From: a phage
DNA length: 64,000 nucleotides
Sequence record: OZ346151.1
Strand: one strand, 5' to 3'
Shown one piece after another: positions 1 through 39,184 of the stretch. The notes beneath the pieces were generated by a model. It had not been told where the DNA came from. It saw nothing but the letters and a program-made list of their open reading frames with translations, and ran no database searches. The translations under genes were made by a program, and so were the position numbers. The number at the start of each line of letters is the position of its first letter. Positions within the stretch are counted from its first letter, which is position 1.

Positions 1-1397
1 TGAGTGCTTTAGAGTTCAAAGCCCCACCTAAGCGAGCATTTACCTCTACAGGAGATGTCAGTAAGATGGGGATAAAATGGTGTGAAGAGATGGGCTGCAA
101 AGACCACGATAAGATGGCTGATTTCTTGAGAGGTTATATTAAGGGCACCTCCACACCACAACCTTTACCTAAAGAGCTGATGGATCAGGCAATAAGCGAT
201 CTGCAACAGAAGCGAATGCCTGACTGCAAGATACCTATGAAAATCAGCAATCAGGACGACATTAAGCGATACCTGATCAGTGCTGGTTGGCTTCCGACAA
301 TGTGGAGAACTAAGGATGTAACTAAGGACAGCAAGAAGAAAGCTCTACCTGATGCAGATGTTGATGCACGAGTATATGCATACATGGACGAGCTTTTAGA
401 GTCAGAGTATTGTGACCTAATTATCAACTTCTGGAACAAAACTGATGCTAAGTTTCAGACAACAGTGCACAAGTTCCGAAGCTTTCCTAACTCCGAAAGG
501 ATTAAAAAGGAAGTGTTCGGGAAAATACGCAGAAAAGCCAGGGCACTTATTACTTCTCCGCAACTGAAAGATACGTTTGGACACCTATGTCCGAATCTTG
601 AAAAATTGAACGGAGAGATGGCTAAAGATATCGTCTTGTGGTTATCATTGCGAAACCGCAGATCGGTCCTTGATCCAATCAAGGAGGATAAGGTTGATAC
701 TGGTCTTCTTAATCACCCACGTTTGAAGATTGACCATAAGCTTCCTGCTAAAAGCTCTGGATTAACAAACACTTCCCGACAGAAACACAGTATTTGTGCA
801 AACATGCCTAAACCATCTCCTAAAGTGGTTATGGGTAAAGAGATGCGTAGCTTGTGGGGTGTTCCTCCTGGATACTTTGAGATCGGTATTGACGGGTCCA
901 ACTTAGAGCAGCTTATCGGGGCTTGGGGTGCCTTTGAGTTCGACAACGGCTTGTACTATGATGTTGTAAGTAACGGGGACGCACACCAAAACAATGCTGA
1001 GGCATATACAAAAGTAGCAGGCAGAGAGGTGTCTCGTAACGACGGTAAACCTATCACGTATGGGGTTATGTACGGGGCACAAAAAGATAAAGTTGCAGAT
1101 ATGCTGGATATCTCCCCAGAGTTGGGGCAAAGGGTGATCGATGCACTTTGGGATGCCAACCCAGGTCTTAAGGGGCGCAAAGAGGATCTGGAGAAATTCT
1201 GGGAAGCAACAGGTAAGAAGTTTATCTACTCTTTTGATGGTCATGCTATCTGGACCCGATCTAAACACTCTTTACTTAATGCATACCAACAAAATGGCGG
1301 CGCATCGTTGTGTGACTTAGTTGGGATACTCATGCACCATCAAATGGTGAAGCGTGGGTGGTACGATGAAGGTGTTCGTCGTATTATCTATTACCAT
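1..1397 (+). CDS. DNA polymerase, family A (Pol I/T7-like), exon 1; 5' end lies outside window
   Basis: Frame 3 is open from window start. Motif A-like GIDGSNLEQL and motif B KPITYGVMYGAQ present. ORF track 66..1403 ends ...IIYYHK-stop exactly where motif C HDE is expected. Confidence 0.85.
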
Positions 1398-4058: not shown

Positions 4059-4087
4059 TTGACAACAGTCATAGGGCCTACTATAAT
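4059..4087 (+). promoter_or_regulatory. perfect consensus sigma70 promoter (TTGACA-N17-TATAAT) with -10 in hairpin loop
   Basis: TTGACA 4059-4064, TATAAT 4082-4087; ATAGGGCC / GGCCCTAT inverted repeat flanks the -10. Confidence 0.7.
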
Positions 4088-7010: not shown

Positions 7011-7072
7011 CATTTAGTTAACATAGCCCTGCCAGAAAGGGTGGGGTATTTTTGTATAAGGAGATCTAAAAA

Positions 7073-7489
7073 ATGACATTAGAAGATATCATTGTTAAAC
7101 CTGAGAACTATGACCAATACAACCTGTCAACTCAATCTGTAGACCTTGGATGCGCCACGGTCAGTGCGTGGCTGGTTAACGGAAAAGAGCTGGATAAATG
7201 CTTAGAAGCTCACATGTCTATTAACAAGTTTCTGGATGAAAATACTCACTGGCTTGAGGGTGCAGGAGTATATGCTTCATGGTTGGAAAGTATGGGATTC
7301 GACTACCAATCTGAAGAAGGGTGGTGGAGCTATTTAGCTATCTGCCCAGAGACGCTGCAATGCTTCATGAAATATTCTGAAGATTTGGAGTACCGGGCGG
7401 TGGTTGATAGTGCTATTGCCCGTTATAGCCGTAAACCTTTTTCCCACGACATTAAAACTGTGGAAGAGTTTGTTGAAGTTTTCTGTTGA
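7073..7489 (+). CDS. hypothetical protein
   Basis: 138 aa, RBS AAGGAG upstream. Confidence 0.45.
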   Translation: MTLEDIIVKPENYDQYNLSTQSVDLGCATVSAWLVNGKELDKCLEAHMSINKFLDENTHWLEGAGVYASWLESMGFDYQSEEGWWSYLAICPETLQCFMKYSEDLEYRAVVDSAIARYSRKPFSHDIKTVEEFVEVFC

Positions 7490-7585
7490 CACAGGTGGAA
7501 AGGTGTGCAATTATAACTTCATAGAACGGGAGGACGTGATGAACGAAGAAAACTGGGATGTATAACTAACAGGAGGCCACTGCCC

Positions 7586-7783
7586 ATGATTTATCGAATC
7601 CGTGTAAGAGAAGATGCACCAGGCTGTTACTTTGACTGGCGTGGGTGGTGGTTTCTCCACCCAATGGATGGACTCACAGATAGAATGCTGGATGCTGCCC
7701 TTTATACAGATACCGACATAGAATATAATCTCTATCTGAAGGACGGTATAGATAACGGCCTGTTTGAAGCAATTCCTGTGTAA
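7586..7783 (+). CDS. hypothetical protein
   Basis: 65 aa, RBS AGGAGG upstream. Confidence 0.4.
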   Translation: MIYRIRVREDAPGCYFDWRGWWFLHPMDGLTDRMLDAALYTDTDIEYNLYLKDGIDNGLFEAIPV

Positions 7784-7851: not shown

Positions 7852-8277
7852 ATGATCTATGAAATGCCAAAACTGATTCGTGACGATGCCCAAAACGCCC
7901 ACACCTTTATCATGGGCAAGCGCATGGATATTATTTGTCATAAAGATTTCTGGGAAGGTAGTTACTTCACAGAATATTTTGGTAAACTGGATAATGGTCT
8001 GCTGATCCAGTTCTACACCGATGCGGAAAACAATATCTGCTGGGAGTTCGAAACTGAAGATATCCATAAACTTTTCACCTTCCTAGGTATTAAGGTTGAG
8101 GCCAAGTTTGAAGAAGGCGAGTGCGACGATTGTGGATTCTACGAGGTAACAGATTTCTATCTCCCAAGTGGTGAGAACCTTTACTATGAAAGCCACTTCG
8201 GCAACTCAAATATGCCACAAGGTTGGGATGAGTTTTTTGAAATTGCGGAAGAGGAGCTGACATACCGTGATTATTGA
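7852..8277 (+). CDS. hypothetical protein
   Basis: 141 aa ORF. Confidence 0.45.
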   Translation: MIYEMPKLIRDDAQNAHTFIMGKRMDIICHKDFWEGSYFTEYFGKLDNGLLIQFYTDAENNICWEFETEDIHKLFTFLGIKVEAKFEEGECDDCGFYEVTDFYLPSGENLYYESHFGNSNMPQGWDEFFEIAEEELTYRDY

Positions 8278-8725
8278 TACTGTAGCGGGAGATTTAATCT
8301 CCCTTTTTAAGAGCGGTGCTGGTCACCTGATCCACGGTTGTAACTGCTTTCATACAATGGGTGCAGGCATAGCGAAAGATATTGCCCGTGAGTTCCCTCA
8401 AGCACTGGCAGCCGACAAAGAGACTGCCTATGGTAATCTGGACAAGCTGGGTATGTTTTCTTGTTGGGAGCATTTTGCCAAGAACAGGGTCGTATATGGA
8501 ATCAACCTGTATACCCAGTTCTACCCAGGGCCCAATGCTGAATACTTCTCAATAATGAAAGGTTTTGAGCGAGTCAACGAGGTATTCAAAGGTGTGTCAT
8601 TGCCGTTCTACATTCCTAAAATTGGATGCGGTATTGGCGGTCTAAAGTGGGAACATGTAGAAGATGTAATTAATCTTGCAACCACAGATATTGATGTGGT
8701 TGTAGTAGAGTACAAAAAGTGTTGA
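8267..8725 (+). CDS. Macrodomain protein (TARG1/DarG-like ADP-ribose hydrolase family)
   Basis: 152 aa; motif HLIHGCNCFHTMGAGIAKDIAREFP typical of TARG1-like macrodomains; GTG start with GAGGAG upstream. Confidence 0.55.
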   Translation: MIIDTVAGDLISLFKSGAGHLIHGCNCFHTMGAGIAKDIAREFPQALAADKETAYGNLDKLGMFSCWEHFAKNRVVYGINLYTQFYPGPNAEYFSIMKGFERVNEVFKGVSLPFYIPKIGCGIGGLKWEHVEDVINLATTDIDVVVVEYKKC

Positions 8726-9175: not shown

Positions 9176-9203
9176 TTGACATCTGAAAACTGCAGTGTAT
9201 AAT
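9176..9203 (+). promoter_or_regulatory. consensus sigma70 promoter (TTGACA-N16-TATAAT)
   Basis: TTGACA 9176-9181, TATAAT 9198-9203. Confidence 0.65.
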
Positions 9204-12462: not shown

Positions 12463-12490
12463 TTGACAAGCTAACTTAAATCGATATAAT
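12463..12490 (+). promoter_or_regulatory. consensus sigma70 promoter (TTGACA-N16-TATAAT)
   Basis: TTGACA 12463-12468, TATAAT 12485-12490; leader hairpin GGGAA-AAC-TTCCC at 12503-12515. Confidence 0.7.
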
Positions 12491-35551: not shown

Positions 35552-35613
35552 TTGGCACCTCCTCTGCTTTCATTACGGCAATTATAACCAACTCAACAAA
35601 GCTTTGTCAACAA

Positions 35614-36263: not shown

Positions 36264-37472
36264 TCAGCAACCACAACTTCCGTAGTGCTTAACTCGCTCG
36301 ATAACTTCCGCTTGCTTACCTTTATTGTAAGGACGGGAGTTAGGACTGGAAAGGTATCCAGACACACGTCGAATTACACTGATCGTTCCCTCTTCATGGT
36401 TTCCACACTCTGGGCATACAAAGCCTTTAGCTGTTGCACTGAACTCACCAGAGAAACCACACTTGAGACATTTATCCACAGGTTGGTTAATACCAAAATA
36501 CATAATGTGTTTATACCCGAAGTCAACAAGAGCCTCTAAAGCATCCAGGTTGTTTTTCAGGTTAGGTGTTTCTACGTATCCGATGTTGCCACCAGAGGAT
36601 ATCATAGCAAAACCTTCTTCATACTCCCACTTATCAAAAGGAGAGCTATTGATCCATACTGGCTGATGGAAACTGTTGGTGAGATATTCATGCTCGTGCT
36701 TCAACACTTCAGGATATTCACGATCCAGACAGGTTGCAGCTTTATAGCATAGACTCTCAGAAGGGGTGCCGTACAAACTAAACGCTAGTCTACTTTTCTT
36801 CTTGTATCGCTCACAAGCATCTCTCATGTGCTGAAGTATTCCAAGAGCTAAAGCCTTGTCACCCTCTCTGCCCAAAATCTGACAGGTTTCATACACACCA
36901 ATATACCCAATACTGATGGAAGCGTACCCGTCATAGAAGAGTTTATCAATACTCTCTTCAGGATCCAGGCGAGCAAGAGCGCCTTCACACCACATGATAG
37001 GGTTCTGCCCTGCCTTAGTGCCTTTCAGACGGTTAACCCTTACAAGGTGAGCTTCATATGCCAAATCCAGATACTCGTCAAGAACGGAAAAGAAATCAAC
37101 ACCTTCCGTCTTAGCTTTTGCCGCAATCATTGGCAGGTTAAGACTAACAACACCCAAGTTGAATCTGCCGAGGTATTTCTCCTCACCTGTTTCCAAGTCA
37201 TTGTATTTGCTAAGAAAACTCCGGCAACCCATGCTCGTTACTTTACCATCTGTCGAGCCTGTCACTTTACGATTTAGTGGAACAGAAACAAAGTCAGGAT
37301 AAATCCGCTCTGCAGAGCATTCCAGAGCTAATCGTTTCAAATCATAGTTAGGATCTCCAGGGTTCATGTTGACACCCTCTTCTAGGAAGAACAACACTTT
37401 AGGGAACACAGGTGTGATACGTTCTTCACCAAGACCCATTTTGTGGACTTTCAAGTAGTTTTTGGTAATCAT
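36264..37472 (-). CDS. nrdD: Anaerobic (class III) ribonucleotide reductase, C-terminal portion
   Basis: Glycyl-radical motif RVSGYL near C-terminus; zinc-ribbon Cys pairs CLKCGFSGE ... CPECGN. Confidence 0.85.
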   Translation of the reverse strand: MITKNYLKVHKMGLGEERITPVFPKVLFFLEEGVNMNPGDPNYDLKRLALECSAERIYPDFVSVPLNRKVTGSTDGKVTSMGCRSFLSKYNDLETGEEKYLGRFNLGVVSLNLPMIAAKAKTEGVDFFSVLDEYLDLAYEAHLVRVNRLKGTKAGQNPIMWCEGALARLDPEESIDKLFYDGYASISIGYIGVYETCQILGREGDKALALGILQHMRDACERYKKKSRLAFSLYGTPSESLCYKAATCLDREYPEVLKHEHEYLTNSFHQPVWINSSPFDKWEYEEGFAMISSGGNIGYVETPNLKNNLDALEALVDFGYKHIMYFGINQPVDKCLKCGFSGEFSATAKGFVCPECGNHEEGTISVIRRVSGYLSSPNSRPYNKGKQAEVIERVKHYGSCGC

Positions 37473-38320
37473 TCTACCAAAGACTGAGGTGTCCAGACCT
37501 AAACTTAATGTGATGAATGGAGTCTGCTGTCTCCTCCCTGTGTTTCCACAGGGCCAGACTATCTCTTACTCTACTTCAATAAGATAATAACCCTTTATTG
37601 TGAGATGCTTACCTTCGGCATTTCCTTCGATAGCCCTATGAACGTTACCTACGTTCAAATTTAAGGCTTTTGCACAGGCATAGAGTGAAGGATATTCACC
37701 CACCAAGGTTTTACCTTTGTATGCCTGCACTTTCCTATAGCACTTACCTGGACAAAGTCCTGTTCGGAAAGCATGTCTCTTATTATCTTCCGGCAAAACC
37801 CACTCTAGGTTAGACGGATGATCATTCAATGTATTGCCATCTTTATGATTCACTTCCCAGTTTTCAGGGTCTTCTGGGACATCCGGCAAACAATACAAGG
37901 CAACAATCCTTGAGGTTTGGATTCGAATCTTTTTACCTTTGTGGTTGAAAGAGTACATATAACGGCGTTTAACATGCTTGTTACCTTTTCCATAACCTCC
38001 CCACAATATTGGGTGTAGCATTCCACGTTTTCCGTATACGTTTCCAACCTCATCAATCACATAGTTTGATTCTTCACCATTAAGAATGATCTTTTTCATA
38101 GAGCCTCTCCATTTCGAAGTTAGTATTTCAACTAACCCCTACACTACTTGGTTCAGAAATGTTTGTCAAGCATTTCTGCCTTTCGTTAGTCGTTACAACC
38201 GTTCCAACTCCTGTAAGAACTAGTCACGGGATTGGCATAGCTTTCGCCTTAGCGTTCCCCGTTAGCCGGATTTACCGACCCCTCTTATGAGGTTAGGAGA
38301 GTTTTACAACGGCCAGTTTG
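37473..38320 (-). mobile_element. Putative group I intron (with HNH ORF) splitting nrdD; exact splice sites undetermined
   Basis: On the minus strand: P-like AACGGGGAACGC, Q-like AATCCCGTGA, R-like GTAACGACTAA (about 38184-38196), S-like AAGAGATAGTCTGG (37553-37566) just after the HNH stop. About 220 nt GC-rich non-coding before the HNH ORF. Confidence 0.55.
37566..38099 (-). CDS. HNH homing endonuclease (within nrdD insertion)
   Basis: 177 aa; VNHKDGNTLNDHPSNLEW motif. Confidence 0.85.
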   Translation of the reverse strand: MKKIILNGEESNYVIDEVGNVYGKRGMLHPILWGGYGKGNKHVKRRYMYSFNHKGKKIRIQTSRIVALYCLPDVPEDPENWEVNHKDGNTLNDHPSNLEWVLPEDNKRHAFRTGLCPGKCYRKVQAYKGKTLVGEYPSLYACAKALNLNVGNVHRAIEGNAEGKHLTIKGYYLIEVE

Positions 38321-39184
38321 TTAACCGTTGACAGAAGTTAACGTGTTGATTTGATAGAGCAAAGTCTGCATGCTGTCAAATACGTCTTTATCTGTCATTT
38401 GCATTGCAACAGTTTCAGCATCCGGCAACCAATGTTCCTGGCAAAATTTAAGGTTCTTCTCATAGGTTGCTTCAGCATACTGTGCCAGATAATGATCAAT
38501 ATGGCTCATAGTCTGACCACCATATTGAGCACTAGCTACCGCACTAGAGATTTGGCTAAGGATTGTTGTTGCAACCCCTATTGACTTCGGCTTACTGACA
38601 TGGGCGTTACCAATGTTGAATCCGTTTTCCAACATATCTGGATAATTTACCAAACAACAGTTTGTTAACGGACTGATCAAGTAGTCAAGATCATGCACAT
38701 GGATGAATCCTTTATTGTGCTCTTCGGAGACACGGTCTGGCAGGATCTGTGTTGATGCAAGGTGTTTGCTAAGAATACCTGCAAGCAGGTCGCGATGAGT
38801 GTGTACATGATTAGTAGGCTTATTTGCGTTTTCTTTTGTAAATTCATCACAAGTTCGATCCAAGAAGCCACTAATATCTGCAAGCAGTTTTCCACCTGCC
38901 TCTCTGTTATTATCTCTTGTCTGTCTATACTGGATGTATTCTCTGGCTGCACATTTTAAACCCATATCCATAAGAGCATCTTCAACAAGGATATGGATAT
39001 TTTTTACAGAGATCGTGCACTGGTCGGTTGGTAGATTGTTAGCAACAACTTCATTAACCGCGCAGGCGATCCGGTAAGCTTCTTCTTCAGTATGTCCAGA
39101 CTCAAGTAAGGCGGACTCTGCCGCCTTGATCACCTTAATTCCGTTATAGAACTCTTCTCTACCGTCCCGTTTTACAACTTTCAC
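38321..39184 (-). CDS. nrdD: Anaerobic (class III) ribonucleotide reductase, N-terminal portion
   Basis: ATP-cone-like start MKVVKRDGREEFYNGIKV; GFIHVHDLDY motif. Confidence 0.85.
   Translation of the reverse strand: MKVVKRDGREEFYNGIKVIKAAESALLESGHTEEEAYRIACAVNEVVANNLPTDQCTISVKNIHILVEDALMDMGLKCAAREYIQYRQTRDNNREAGGKLLADISGFLDRTCDEFTKENANKPTNHVHTHRDLLAGILSKHLASTQILPDRVSEEHNKGFIHVHDLDYLISPLTNCCLVNYPDMLENGFNIGNAHVSKPKSIGVATTILSQISSAVASAQYGGQTMSHIDHYLAQYAEATYEKNLKFCQEHWLPDAETVAMQMTDKDVFDSMQTLLYQINTLTSVNG

Follow-up and report, generated by a model that had tools for sequence, protein, structure and literature searches.

What would a large lytic phage gain from a small, free-standing macrodomain, and which ADP-ribose linkage would such a protein act on? 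The question arises in the stretch of DNA analyzed here, a 64,000-nucleotide window (record OZ346151.1) from the ~137-kb genome of a Vequintavirus, an rV5-like E. coli phage. A sequence-only reading of this window had assigned one open reading frame (ORF) to the TARG1/DarG macrodomains. Its ORF call proved exact (Table 1), and the peptide that it took as a signature, HGCNCFHTMGAGIAKDIAREFP, forms residues 23-44 of the product. The gene and the ORF before it overlap by 11 nt, and the Shine-Dalgarno sequence also falls inside the 3′ end of that ORF, an arrangement suggesting that the two are translationally coupled. Phages JLBYU08 and Murica carry the same annotated start and ribosome-binding site, and the N-terminus matches that of T4 Tk.4 position by position. 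In Vequintavirus the gene is already annotated, either as a macro-domain protein or as a ‘phosphatase’.

Table 1. Features at and around the macrodomain gene, and the sirtuin gene, in positions of the 64,000-nt window.
Feature	Position	Strand	Basis
Macrodomain gene, Tk.4/AdfM-type, 152 aa, GTG start, TGA stop	8267..8725	+	ORF, Pfam, PHROG, AF2, Foldseek
Shine-Dalgarno sequence AGGAG, 10 nt upstream of GTG	8252..8256	+	Sequence; RBS annotated there in Murica
Upstream ORF, 141 aa, PHROG 8157 of no assigned function	7852..8277	+	ORF list; PHROG
Sigma70-like promoter candidate, TTGACA-17-AATTAT with TG	7486-7514	+	Consensus match
Sigma70-like promoter candidate, TTTATA-17-TATAAT	7701-7729	+	Consensus match
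Terminator-like hairpin, upstream of the promoter candidates	7026-7047		Sequence
Hairpin within the gene (codons 7-13), 7-bp stem, GGGAGAT-TTA-ATCTCCC, then a T-run	8287..8303	+	Annotated ‘terminator’ in Murica
CobB-like sirtuin gene	56024..56785	-	Pfam SIR2, E=6.9e-28; NCBIfam NAD-dependent deacylase, E=1.3e-35

Both checks that the sequence-only reading had proposed for the fold, a search with Macro domain profiles and a structure prediction, came out in its favor. The Pfam Macro model (PF01661) scores the protein at 25.9 bits, above the gathering cut-off of 22 (E=1e-5), and the AF2 model (pLDDT 94.7, pTM 0.90) displays the three-layer α/β/α arrangement of macrodomains, which Foldseek matches with a probability of 1.00 to TARG1, Poa1p, DarG, BT1257 and SCO6735. 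We thus assign the protein with high confidence to the macrodomains and, within them, to the ALC1/TARG1-like structural class. Foldseek failed to choose a subfamily, as all five structures match alike (TM 0.70-0.76). Family membership is more specific: by its sequence, the protein is a full-length member of the phage family of T4 Tk.4, also called AdfM(T4). It matches the PHROG 335 profile at E=1.4e-59 and aligns with T4 Tk.4 at 39% identity (E=1e-43) over residues 1-150, that is, over the full length. Every residue that is invariant in the family (G24, N26, C27, M31, G34, A36, D50, N80, Y82, Q84, P117, G120 and G122) is present. Homologs occur in 2,742 of 50,697 phage records, with hundreds of records from phages of Pseudomonas, Acinetobacter, Aeromonas and Shigella, and a library of 1.84 billion proteins holds 1,293 clusters (50% identity) at E<=1e-30 and 8,631 at E<=1e-10. 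The relatives include standalone chromosomal copies without DarT nearby.

Upon alignment of the active site, in which we based residue equivalences on sequence, profile and structure-derived alignments, we noticed a substitution at the position that defines the chemistry of DarG and TARG1. The catalytic lysine of both (K80 in Taq DarG, K84 in TARG1) aligns with a glutamine, Q84, in the motif N80-x-Y82-T83-Q84, and D125 of TARG1 aligns with G124 in the diphosphate loop (G120-C-G122-I-G-G125); the Lys84/Asp125 dyad of TARG1/OARD1 is absent. Further key residues are D9 at the adenine-binding position, H23, N26, the loop 1 glycines G32/G34, and P117. Among 260 family sequences, Q84 is conserved in 256, N26 in 259, G120 in 256 and G122 in 257, T30 in 173, and D50 and K60 are invariant and specific to the Tk.4 family. 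N26, Q84, G120 and G122 align with N27, Q85, G126 and G128 of SCO6735, so that the protein combines glutamine at the lysine position, the loop 1 asparagine and the equivalents of the Gly126/Gly128 loop. By these alignments, its active site is of the SCO6735/BT1257 glutamine type and not that of the DarG or TARG1 subfamily. The extended mobile loop that carries Lys89 in SCO6735 is absent; the phage loop is 5-6 residues shorter, the length found in TARG1 and DarG.

Profile searches draw the same line. DarG is the sole curated prokaryotic or defence family that the protein matches (NCBIfam E=1.7e-12; PADLOC E=1.4e-13), and DarG models give it 47-49 bits versus 133-138 bits for the lysine-type AdfM of phage PhiKZ, gp104 (PADLOC: 49 versus 132.9). 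The curated DarG equivalog model (NCBIfam NF048014, cut-off 250 bits) is missed with 47.3 bits, and its match covers profile positions 4-144 of 338. The 152-residue protein is a macrodomain alone, lacking the C-terminal DarT-binding domain, and a domain search of the neighboring genes found no DarT. The claim that the signature marks the TARG1/DarG clade is therefore contradicted by the glutamine in place of lysine, the glycine in place of Asp125 and the low DarG scores. Because the Tk.4 family shares this replacement of lysine by glutamine, its chemistry should be modelled on SCO6735.

How closely the protein resembles better-studied macrodomains differs from case to case. T4 Tk.4 is likewise standalone, ~150 amino acids long and a member of PHROG 335; it shares the NLYTQ, HGCNCFHTMG and ADK motifs, including Q84, N26 and D50, and both genes are part of a stretch of small non-essential genes in a large lytic E. 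coli myophage. The two differ in lineage (Tevenvirinae versus Vequintavirinae), in neighbors (vs and tk.3 in T4, unrelated unassigned ORFs in the window) and at G125, which is a lysine in T4. SCO6735 and BT1257, which give the strongest profile matches of all solved structures (E=1.8e-15 and 6.7e-15), also have a lysine-less active site, are standalone and lack a DarT-binding domain, yet they share only ~22-24% identity with the phage protein, and the Tk.4 family differs from SCO6735 by the shorter loop without K89 and by its own invariant D50, K60, Y82 and C27. Moreover, SCO6735 is a DNA-damage-inducible cellular protein of Streptomyces coelicolor rather than a phage counter-defence factor (PMC9411070). 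DarG is of the same fold class (TM 0.75-0.76 to the Taq and Mtb proteins) and shares the conserved asparagine (N22 in DarG, N23 in PhiKZ, N26 here). By analogy, DarG, PhiKZ gp104 and the window protein would probably have thymine-ADPr single-stranded DNA as a common substrate and neutralization of DarT2 as a common logic. By contrast, DarG and PhiKZ gp104 use a catalytic lysine (Taq K80, PhiKZ K78) where the phage protein has Q84, and DarG has a DarT-binding domain and an adjacent darT gene, of which the window protein has neither. Together with the low DarG scores and the identity of 22% to PhiKZ gp104, this indicates that the two phage ‘AdfM’ are separate lineages under a shared name. Human TARG1/OARD1, the top Foldseek match (E=1.4e-9, TM 0.74), is similar in size (152 amino acids) and has the GD adenine-binding motif and the PxIGCG loop in common with the phage protein, whereas its K84/D125 dyad corresponds to Q84/G124 and a serine occupies the position of N26. 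TARG1, too, can cleave thymine-ADPr DNA (PMC9411070).

We put at roughly 60% the probability that the protein is a catalytically active ADP-ribosyl-glycohydrolase of the Tk.4/AdfM type that serves as a counter-defence against DarTG2. In such a mechanism, triggering of host DarTG2 would lead DarT2 to ADP-ribosylate thymines in single-stranded TNTC motifs of the replicating phage DNA. The macrodomain enzyme, whose gene immediately follows the replication module and is probably transcribed early by the host RNA polymerase, would cut the thymine-ADP-ribose bond, thereby freeing ADP-ribose and restoring replicable DNA. Because DarG’s second, DarT-binding domain is missing, this action would be purely enzymatic, that of an ‘orphan antitoxin’. 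Q84, held by N26, would position the distal ribose while G120 and G122 of the Gly-rich loop hold the diphosphate, a lysine-independent arrangement of the SCO6735 type.

A first line of evidence comes from T4. According to the 2025 HIDEN-SEQ preprint, which named Tk.4 AdfM (anti-DarT factor, macrodomain), a transposon screen performed on a host with DarTG2 yielded tk.4 as its single hit, and T4 with a clean knock-out of the gene was DarTG2-sensitive (10.1101/2025.11.20.689424). The gene is otherwise non-essential. This evidence is genetic and comes from one preprint, whose accessible text mentions no catalytic mutant of Tk.4. To that extent, the anti-DarT DNA eraser proposed by the sequence-only reading finds a counterpart in the T4 homolog; the phenotype is that of Tk.4, while the window protein is known from its sequence. 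From this homology, we infer that thymine-linked ADP-ribose is the likely substrate and that the Vequintavirus phage may show a corresponding phenotype. In line with this, SCO6735 strips DarT-made thymidine-ADPr off DNA, and its mutants Q85A, N27S and G128E are dead, nearly dead and impaired, respectively (PMC9411070). A different phage macrodomain, PhiKZ AdfM, removes DarT2 marks from DNA biochemically (PMC13309987), indicating that the strategy exists in phages. Two observations on relatives add to this picture. NADAR, the fold that removes DarT1’s guanine-ADPr (DarG1/AdfN), is fused to four of the ten longest relatives, which lends Rosetta-stone support to an anti-DarT role; one of these fusions adjoins a NUDIX gene. 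And in T5, which serves as a DarTG2-sensitive control phage, a six-frame search at maximum sensitivity found no macrodomain (positive controls at E=1.6e-58, 2.3e-49 and 7.4e-10), a natural correlation that favors the anti-DarTG2 role. In the window itself, tblastn with four NADAR segments detected no NADAR (anti-DarT1) or DUF4326 gene.

Two features caution against a literal transfer of either model. With an identity to T4 Tk.4 of just 39%, specificity could differ, and with D50 and K60 of its own and without the lysine-bearing mobile loop, whose K89 is important for activity on DNA and for processivity in SCO6735 (PMC9411070), mechanism and substrate may depart from those of SCO6735. We tentatively entertain, at somewhat less than even odds, a broader evolutionary scenario: Tk.4-type proteins would be an independent lysine-less lineage, marked by D50/K60, that converged with the DarG-derived PhiKZ gp104 on DarT2, such that phages recruited two mechanistically different erasers for one lesion, with a Tk.4 mechanism that may be distinct from that of DarG or substrates that may be wider. 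The literature that we searched, which did not extend to LeRoux 2022 (PMC9250638), contains no report on the DarTG2 sensitivity of Vequintavirinae.

The genomic context is in keeping with the proposed counter-defence role. Genes for primase, DNA polymerase and SSB precede the macrodomain gene on its strand, and the two promoter candidates may drive a small operon that includes it. In the region we counted 32 sigma70-type sites versus 15 +/- 3.8 expected, and the window contains four perfect consensus promoters where 0.03 are expected. This density makes early expression plausible; we found no usable transcriptome or early-promoter literature for rV5-like phages. Krischvirus and T4-like homologs preserve the hairpin inside the gene, with compensatory changes. 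We rejected the ‘terminator’ as a family-wide feature, the mean being 3.97 pairs versus 3.54 under a synonymous-codon null, and found no known RNA families around the gene. We also discarded the idea of a partner or two-component system: the upstream ORF and eight neighbors belong to PHROGs without assigned function, show no Pfam domain except for one zinc-binding domain, and across 80 viral loci no neighbor of the macrodomain gene is conserved. The upstream ORF adjoins the gene only in Vequintavirus-like contigs and is operon context alone, not a conserved partner.

If not a DarT2-specific eraser, the protein might be a more general one that strips mono-ADP-ribose off proteins of phage or host, or off RNA ends, that host ART toxins or phage-encoded ARTs have modified, with DarT2 reversal as one, perhaps minor, activity. 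ALC1-like macrodomains are promiscuous: SCO6735 also de-modifies auto-ADP-ribosylated PARP1 E988Q (PMC9411070), and the substrates of TARG1 include proteins as well as phosphate-linked ADPr of RNA and DNA. The sheer size of the family, with its 8,631 clusters, and its DarT-less chromosomal members likewise suggest a broader housekeeping or protective role. We nevertheless consider this unlikely, since the Lys/Asp dyad that TARG1 uses for Glu/Asp-ADPr is absent, SCO6735 was inactive on 5′-phosphate-linked and 2′-OH-linked ADPr of RNA and DNA in the assays described, no ART gene was identified beside the macrodomain gene, and the sole genetic phenotype known for the Tk.4 family is specific to DarTG2. 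The database names point elsewhere, to a Poa1p-like phosphatase that clears ADP-ribose-1″-phosphate (Appr-1″-p) from the 2′-phosphotransferase step of RNA repair or splicing: T4 Tk.4 is listed as ‘contains A1pp phosphatase motif’ and PHROG 335 as ‘phosphatase’, and the names also include ‘Poa1p-like family protein’. The ‘phosphatase’ labels originate from yeast Poa1p, which scores near the top in both sequence and fold searches (E=2e-5; 8e-12; TM 0.70) and has a very similar N-terminal motif, HxCNCxxxxGxGIA; two of its residues examined by mutagenesis, H23 and S30, have H23 and T30 as counterparts in the phage protein. Elsewhere, the window encodes an Rnl1-type RNA ligase and a cREC domain that processes cyclic phosphates. 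Many macrodomains display weak A1pp phosphatase activity in vitro that is not their role. Poa1p is also longer (~177 amino acids with insertions), and its F152 aligns with G124. T30 is variable, whereas Q84, whose counterpart SCO6735 requires for thymine-ADPr cleavage, hardly varies. Furthermore, 47 kb separate the gene from the RNA-repair cassette, which is on the opposite strand, no Tpt1/KptA-type 2′-phosphotransferase was found in the part of the ORFs scanned, and we found no evidence tying the Tk.4 phage family to Appr-1″-p metabolism. As a phosphatase would also leave the DarTG2 phenotype described for T4 unexplained, we judge this function improbable.

The remaining readings concern small molecules. 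The sequence-only reading had connected the macrodomain to a Sir2 gene, and the CobB-like sirtuin is indeed there (Table 1), which would allow the macrodomain to act downstream of it as an O-acetyl-ADP-ribose (OAADPr) deacetylase; TARG1/OARD1 is an OAADPr deacylase by its molecule names, and some metagenome pipelines name homologs ‘O-acetyl-ADP-ribose deacetylase’. The functional link is not supported. The sirtuin gene is located ~47 kb from the macrodomain gene, on the opposite strand and inside the RNA-ligase/cREC cassette, and the distributions of the two are largely independent: Sir2 occurs in 1,012 phage records, mainly T5-like phages and Vequintavirinae and their relatives, versus 2,742 for the macrodomain, and T5 has Sir2 but no macrodomain. 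Conversely, T4 has the macrodomain and, to our knowledge, no sirtuin. TARG1 D125 and the serine at the N26 position, which we take to be implicated in OAADPr deacylation, are replaced by Gly and Asn. We therefore rejected a Sir2-macrodomain coupling and find the deacetylase quite improbable. Hydrolysis of ADP-ribose-derived signals, which had also been proposed, fares worse still: we regard the cleavage or sequestration of immune signals of this kind (for example Thoeris gcADPR or His-ADPR), or of other NAD-derived messengers, as extremely improbable. One fused relative matches the ThsA macro domain model marginally (E=6e-6), and phages do target ADP-ribose-derived immune signals by other proteins, but we know of no macrodomain that cleaves gcADPR- or His-ADPR-type signals. 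The conserved catalytic residues instead match a glycohydrolase acting on thymine-ADPr, and the T4 screen, among the systems described, tied tk.4 to DarTG2 only.

The gene family was thus already annotated and has recently been explained through T4 Tk.4/AdfM. The main refinement is that this widespread family (>2,700 phage genomes, thousands of clusters) carries glutamine and not the lysine of DarG and TARG1. The split of ‘AdfM’ into two lineages matters for nomenclature, for annotation, where the label is now ‘phosphatase’, and for inhibitor and engineering work. If confirmed, the DarT2-reversing function of the window protein would extend macrodomain-based counter-defence against DarTG2 beyond T-even phages to the Vequintavirinae, which find use in E. 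coli phage therapy and biocontrol, and would help to predict which phages plate on pathogenic strains that carry DarTG2.

The macrodomain gene lies exactly where the sequence-only reading had put it, and the peptide quoted from it, HGCNCFHTMGAGIAKDIAREFP, corresponds to residues 23-44 of the product. Its start is annotated identically in two closely related genomes, and the N-terminus of the protein aligns with that of T4 Tk.4 residue for residue. The source phage belongs to the genus Vequintavirus and is an E. coli myophage of the rV5-like kind. Used as a query, the 3-kb region around the gene shares 99.7% identity with Escherichia phage JLBYU08 and hits 121 phage records, with coverage of 80% or more in 116 of these; on that basis we regard the gene as a core gene of the genus, and its existing labels are 'putative macro domain-containing protein', 'Macro domain protein', 'Poa1p-like family protein' and 'phosphatase'. 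Between 16 and 25 unannotated GenBank 'Campylobacter phage' records (host C. jejuni; e.g. MG065659, MG065653 and MG065677) are 97-100% identical to the window sequence, and 'Campylobacter phage C14' has a Sir2 protein 100% identical to the one encoded in the window. The hosts given in these records look doubtful, pointing to contamination or mislabelling.

Features of the window discussed in the text
Feature	Position	Strand	Details
Perfect sigma70 consensus promoter	4059..4087	+	
Terminator-like hairpin	7026-7047		after SSB gene
Promoter-like sites	7486 and 7701		beyond the 7026-7047 hairpin
Preceding ORF	7852..8277		stop overlaps macrodomain start by 11 nt
Ribosome-binding site AGGAG	10 nt upstream of macrodomain start	+	
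Macrodomain ORF	8267..8725	+	152 aa, GTG start
Perfect 7-bp hairpin GGGAGAT-TTA-ATCTCCC plus T-run	8287..8303	+	within macrodomain ORF, 20 nt past start codon
Perfect sigma70 consensus promoter	9176..9203	+	
Perfect sigma70 consensus promoter	12463..12490	+	
Perfect sigma70 consensus promoter	35581..35610	-	
nrdD, in two ORFs	36264..39184	-	NRDD profile positions 1-154 and 180-562
Group I intron match, full-length, sub-threshold	37536..37823		between nrdD halves; 27.8 bits (gathering score 50), E=8.7e-5
HNH endonuclease ORF	37566..38099		between nrdD halves
PHROG 671 'nucleotide pyrophosphohydrolase'-like protein	55297..56010	-	E=5.7e-22
CobB-like sirtuin (NCBIfam)	56024..56785	-	253 aa, Pfam SIR2 E=6.9e-28
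cREC 'cyclic-phosphate processing receiver' domain protein	56794..57144	-	E=9e-14
Rnl1-type RNA ligase	57141..58076	-	PF09511 E=1e-14

Primase, DNA polymerase and SSB genes precede the macrodomain gene on its own strand, and it heads a long series of small ORFs of unknown function. Sigma70-like sites occur at twice the density of shuffled sequence (32 vs 15 ± 3.8), nearly all on the + strand, and four perfect TTGACA-N16-18-TATAAT promoters occur in the window where 0.03 are expected by chance. These four, two of which (4059 and 9176) flank the macrodomain gene, probably mark strong early transcription units served by host RNA polymerase, and the arrangement makes early expression of the gene plausible; a search for published expression data found none. 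The hairpin inside the ORF is labelled 'terminator' in phage Murica, and its stem is maintained by paired changes in one Krischvirus and in the tk.4 genes of T4-like phages: an A-T to C-G replacement combines a synonymous Gly codon change with Ser>Ala, and at the compared locus L033 a G-C to A-T replacement consists of two synonymous changes. Across the family the hairpin is absent from most members (mean 3.97 pairs vs a null of 3.54), and it could be an mRNA structure particular to some lineages, or coincidental. Elsewhere in the window, the anaerobic ribonucleotide reductase gene nrdD, uninterrupted in JLBYU08, is split in two, probably by a mobile group I intron with its homing endonuclease, as at T4 nrdD.

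The product is a macrodomain, scoring 25.9 bits against Pfam Macro (threshold 22) and matching PHROG 335, the Tk.4 family, at E=1.4e-59. AlphaFold2, run on a 97-sequence alignment, gave a very confident model (pLDDT 94.7, pTM 0.90), whose top Foldseek matches in the PDB are all ALC1/TARG1-like macrodomains (probability 1.00, TM 0.70-0.76): TARG1, Poa1p, T. aquaticus DarG, M. tuberculosis DarG, BT1257, T. africanus DarTG and SCO6735. Lack of a macrodomain fold, which would have counted against the sequence-only reading, is thus excluded. Homologs occur in 2,742 of 50,697 phage records (tblastn), and an exhaustive profile search returned 1,293 clusters at 50% identity at E<=1e-30 and 8,631 at E<=1e-10, standalone proteins of ~150 aa forming the majority.

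Assignment to the TARG1/DarG clade, as originally proposed, holds for the fold class and fails for the active site. Alignment of the window protein, T4 Tk.4 and RB5 Tk.4 with solved enzymes places Q84 where TARG1 (K84) and M. tuberculosis DarG have their catalytic lysine, a mapping with which the HMMER profile alignment is consistent, and G124 at TARG1 D125. The family alignment is invariant at G24, N26, C27, M31, G34, A36, D50, N80, Y82, Q84, P117, G120 and G122; over 260 sequences, Q84 is conserved in 256, N26 in 259 and D50 in 258. The two solved enzymes that share this glutamine, BT1257 and SCO6735, are also the best and second-best profile matches among solved structures (E=1.8e-15 and 6.7e-15), followed by TARG1 (1.1e-13), M. 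tuberculosis DarG (2.5e-13) and Poa1p (8e-12). SCO6735, from Streptomyces coelicolor, has been proven biochemically to hydrolyse thymidine-ADP-ribose on DNA and has neither the Lys nor the Asp of TARG1 and DarG; its activity is lost in Q85A, almost lost in N27S and impaired in G128E (PMC9411070). Synthetic T-ADPr oligonucleotides were confirmed as its substrates in a later study. N26, Q84, G120 and G122 of the window protein are exact equivalents of SCO6735 residues, in a mapping that agrees with the published numbering once a constant offset of 20 for the tag is allowed for. By contrast, the SCO6735 'mobile loop' with K89, which is 5-6 residues longer, is absent from the phage family, and the family's invariant D50 and near-invariant K60 are found in none of the solved enzymes compared. 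By sequence, the Tk.4 family is thus Gln-type rather than DarG/TARG1-type.

Against the NCBIfam antitoxin_DarG model (cut-off 250 bits), the window protein scores 47.3 bits and T4 Tk.4 30.3 (PADLOC DarG, 49 and 36), and PhiKZ gp104, the second protein published as 'AdfM' (Cell Rep 2026; PMC13309987), scores 137.8 (PADLOC, 132.9). The latter matches Mtb DarG at E=9.4e-25, carries the FPTK motif and shares only 22% identity with the window protein, which here also serves as proxy for T4 Tk.4. On these scores, motif and identity, two distinct phage lineages bear the name AdfM, a Lys-type derived from DarG (PhiKZ gp104) and a Gln-type (T4 Tk.4), and the window gene sits in the latter. The name was coined independently for these non-orthologous macrodomains (preprint 2025; Cell Rep 2026), a clash from which annotation confusion is to come.

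The T-even counterpart, tk.4, adjoins vs, and its product is 39% identical to the window protein over the full length (E=1e-43). On genetic evidence reported in a November 2025 preprint (HIDEN-SEQ; 10.1101/2025.11.20.689424), passaging a T4 transposon library on a host that expresses DarTG2 singled out tk.4 as the one significant hit, and a clean knock-out rendered T4 DarTG2-sensitive; the authors renamed the gene adfM, 'anti-DarT factor macrodomain'. The gene is otherwise non-essential, tolerating insertions at 45/46 TA sites. Because loss of tk.4 sensitizes T4, the proposal that this phage gene reverses DarT-type DNA ADP-ribosylation agrees with the genetics of a family member. In T5, the DarTG2-sensitive control phage in two studies, a maximum-sensitivity six-frame search detected neither lineage of macrodomain (best E=0.76; positive controls 1.6e-58, 2.3e-49 and 7.4e-10). 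In the T4-like Escherichia phage UPWr_E1 (Krischvirus, Straboviridae), the macrodomain at 301..756 of the compared locus L011 is 69% identical to the Vequintavirus protein, compared with ~40% for other T-even Tk.4 proteins, which suggests horizontal exchange between Vequintavirinae and Krischvirus.

These data establish the gene, its fold, its family and the conservation of its active site; from them we infer substrate, expression timing and phenotype, with a probability of about 0.6 for the following reading. The enzyme would be made early from a small operon. Where DarT2 has placed ADP-ribose on thymines of TNTC motifs, in the single-stranded regions of phage DNA under replication, it would remove the modification and restore replication. 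Its chemistry would be lysine-independent and SCO6735-type, the distal ribose being positioned by Q84, itself locked by N26, and the diphosphate bound by the Gly-rich loop (G120, G122). It would act as an orphan antitoxin lacking a toxin-binding domain. The NADAR fusions described below and T5, which lacks the macrodomain, independently support a role on ADP-ribosylated DNA. Among alternatives, a broader eraser of protein or RNA ADP-ribose appears unlikely. A Poa1p-like phosphatase acting on Appr-1''-p, in keeping with the record label and the structural match to Poa1p, is distinctly improbable.

Slightly less probable still is an O-acetyl-ADP-ribose deacetylase partnered with Sir2. The Sir2 gene that was invoked for such a link exists, but functional coupling is unsupported: it is separated from the macrodomain gene by ~47 kb and encoded on the other strand, its distribution (1,012 phage records, mostly T5-like phages, Vequintavirinae and relatives) is unlike that of the macrodomain, and T5 carries only Sir2 of the two. 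The sirtuin belongs to a four-gene cassette (55297..58076, -) with the RNA ligase, cREC and pyrophosphohydrolase-like genes, which resembles a module for RNA repair or one linked to NAD. Hydrolysis of immune signals we consider very improbable.

Since a bacterial homolog on the Pelagimonas chromosome stands alone and has no DarT next to it, and no neighbour is conserved across 80 viral loci, we consider the enzyme an autonomous module. Among the ten longest family members, four carry NADAR-domain fusions and two DUF4326, and a NUDIX gene adjoins one NADAR fusion. Four metagenomic proteins (P0152, P0195, P0208 and P0227) and the compared locus L008 (2427..3437) combine a Tk.4-type (Gln) macrodomain and NADAR in single polypeptides, sometimes with DUF4326. 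DarG1 and AdfN, too, have the NADAR fold, which strips DarT1's guanine-linked ADP-ribose from DNA. With the gene annotated and the family's function recently published, the DarT hypothesis is probably correct but not new. What our analysis adds is modest: the Gln-type nature of the Tk.4 family, the separateness of the AdfM lineages, and Tk.4-type/NADAR fusions that appear previously undescribed and, judged from their domains, would unite erasers of thymine and guanine ADP-ribosylation in one protein.
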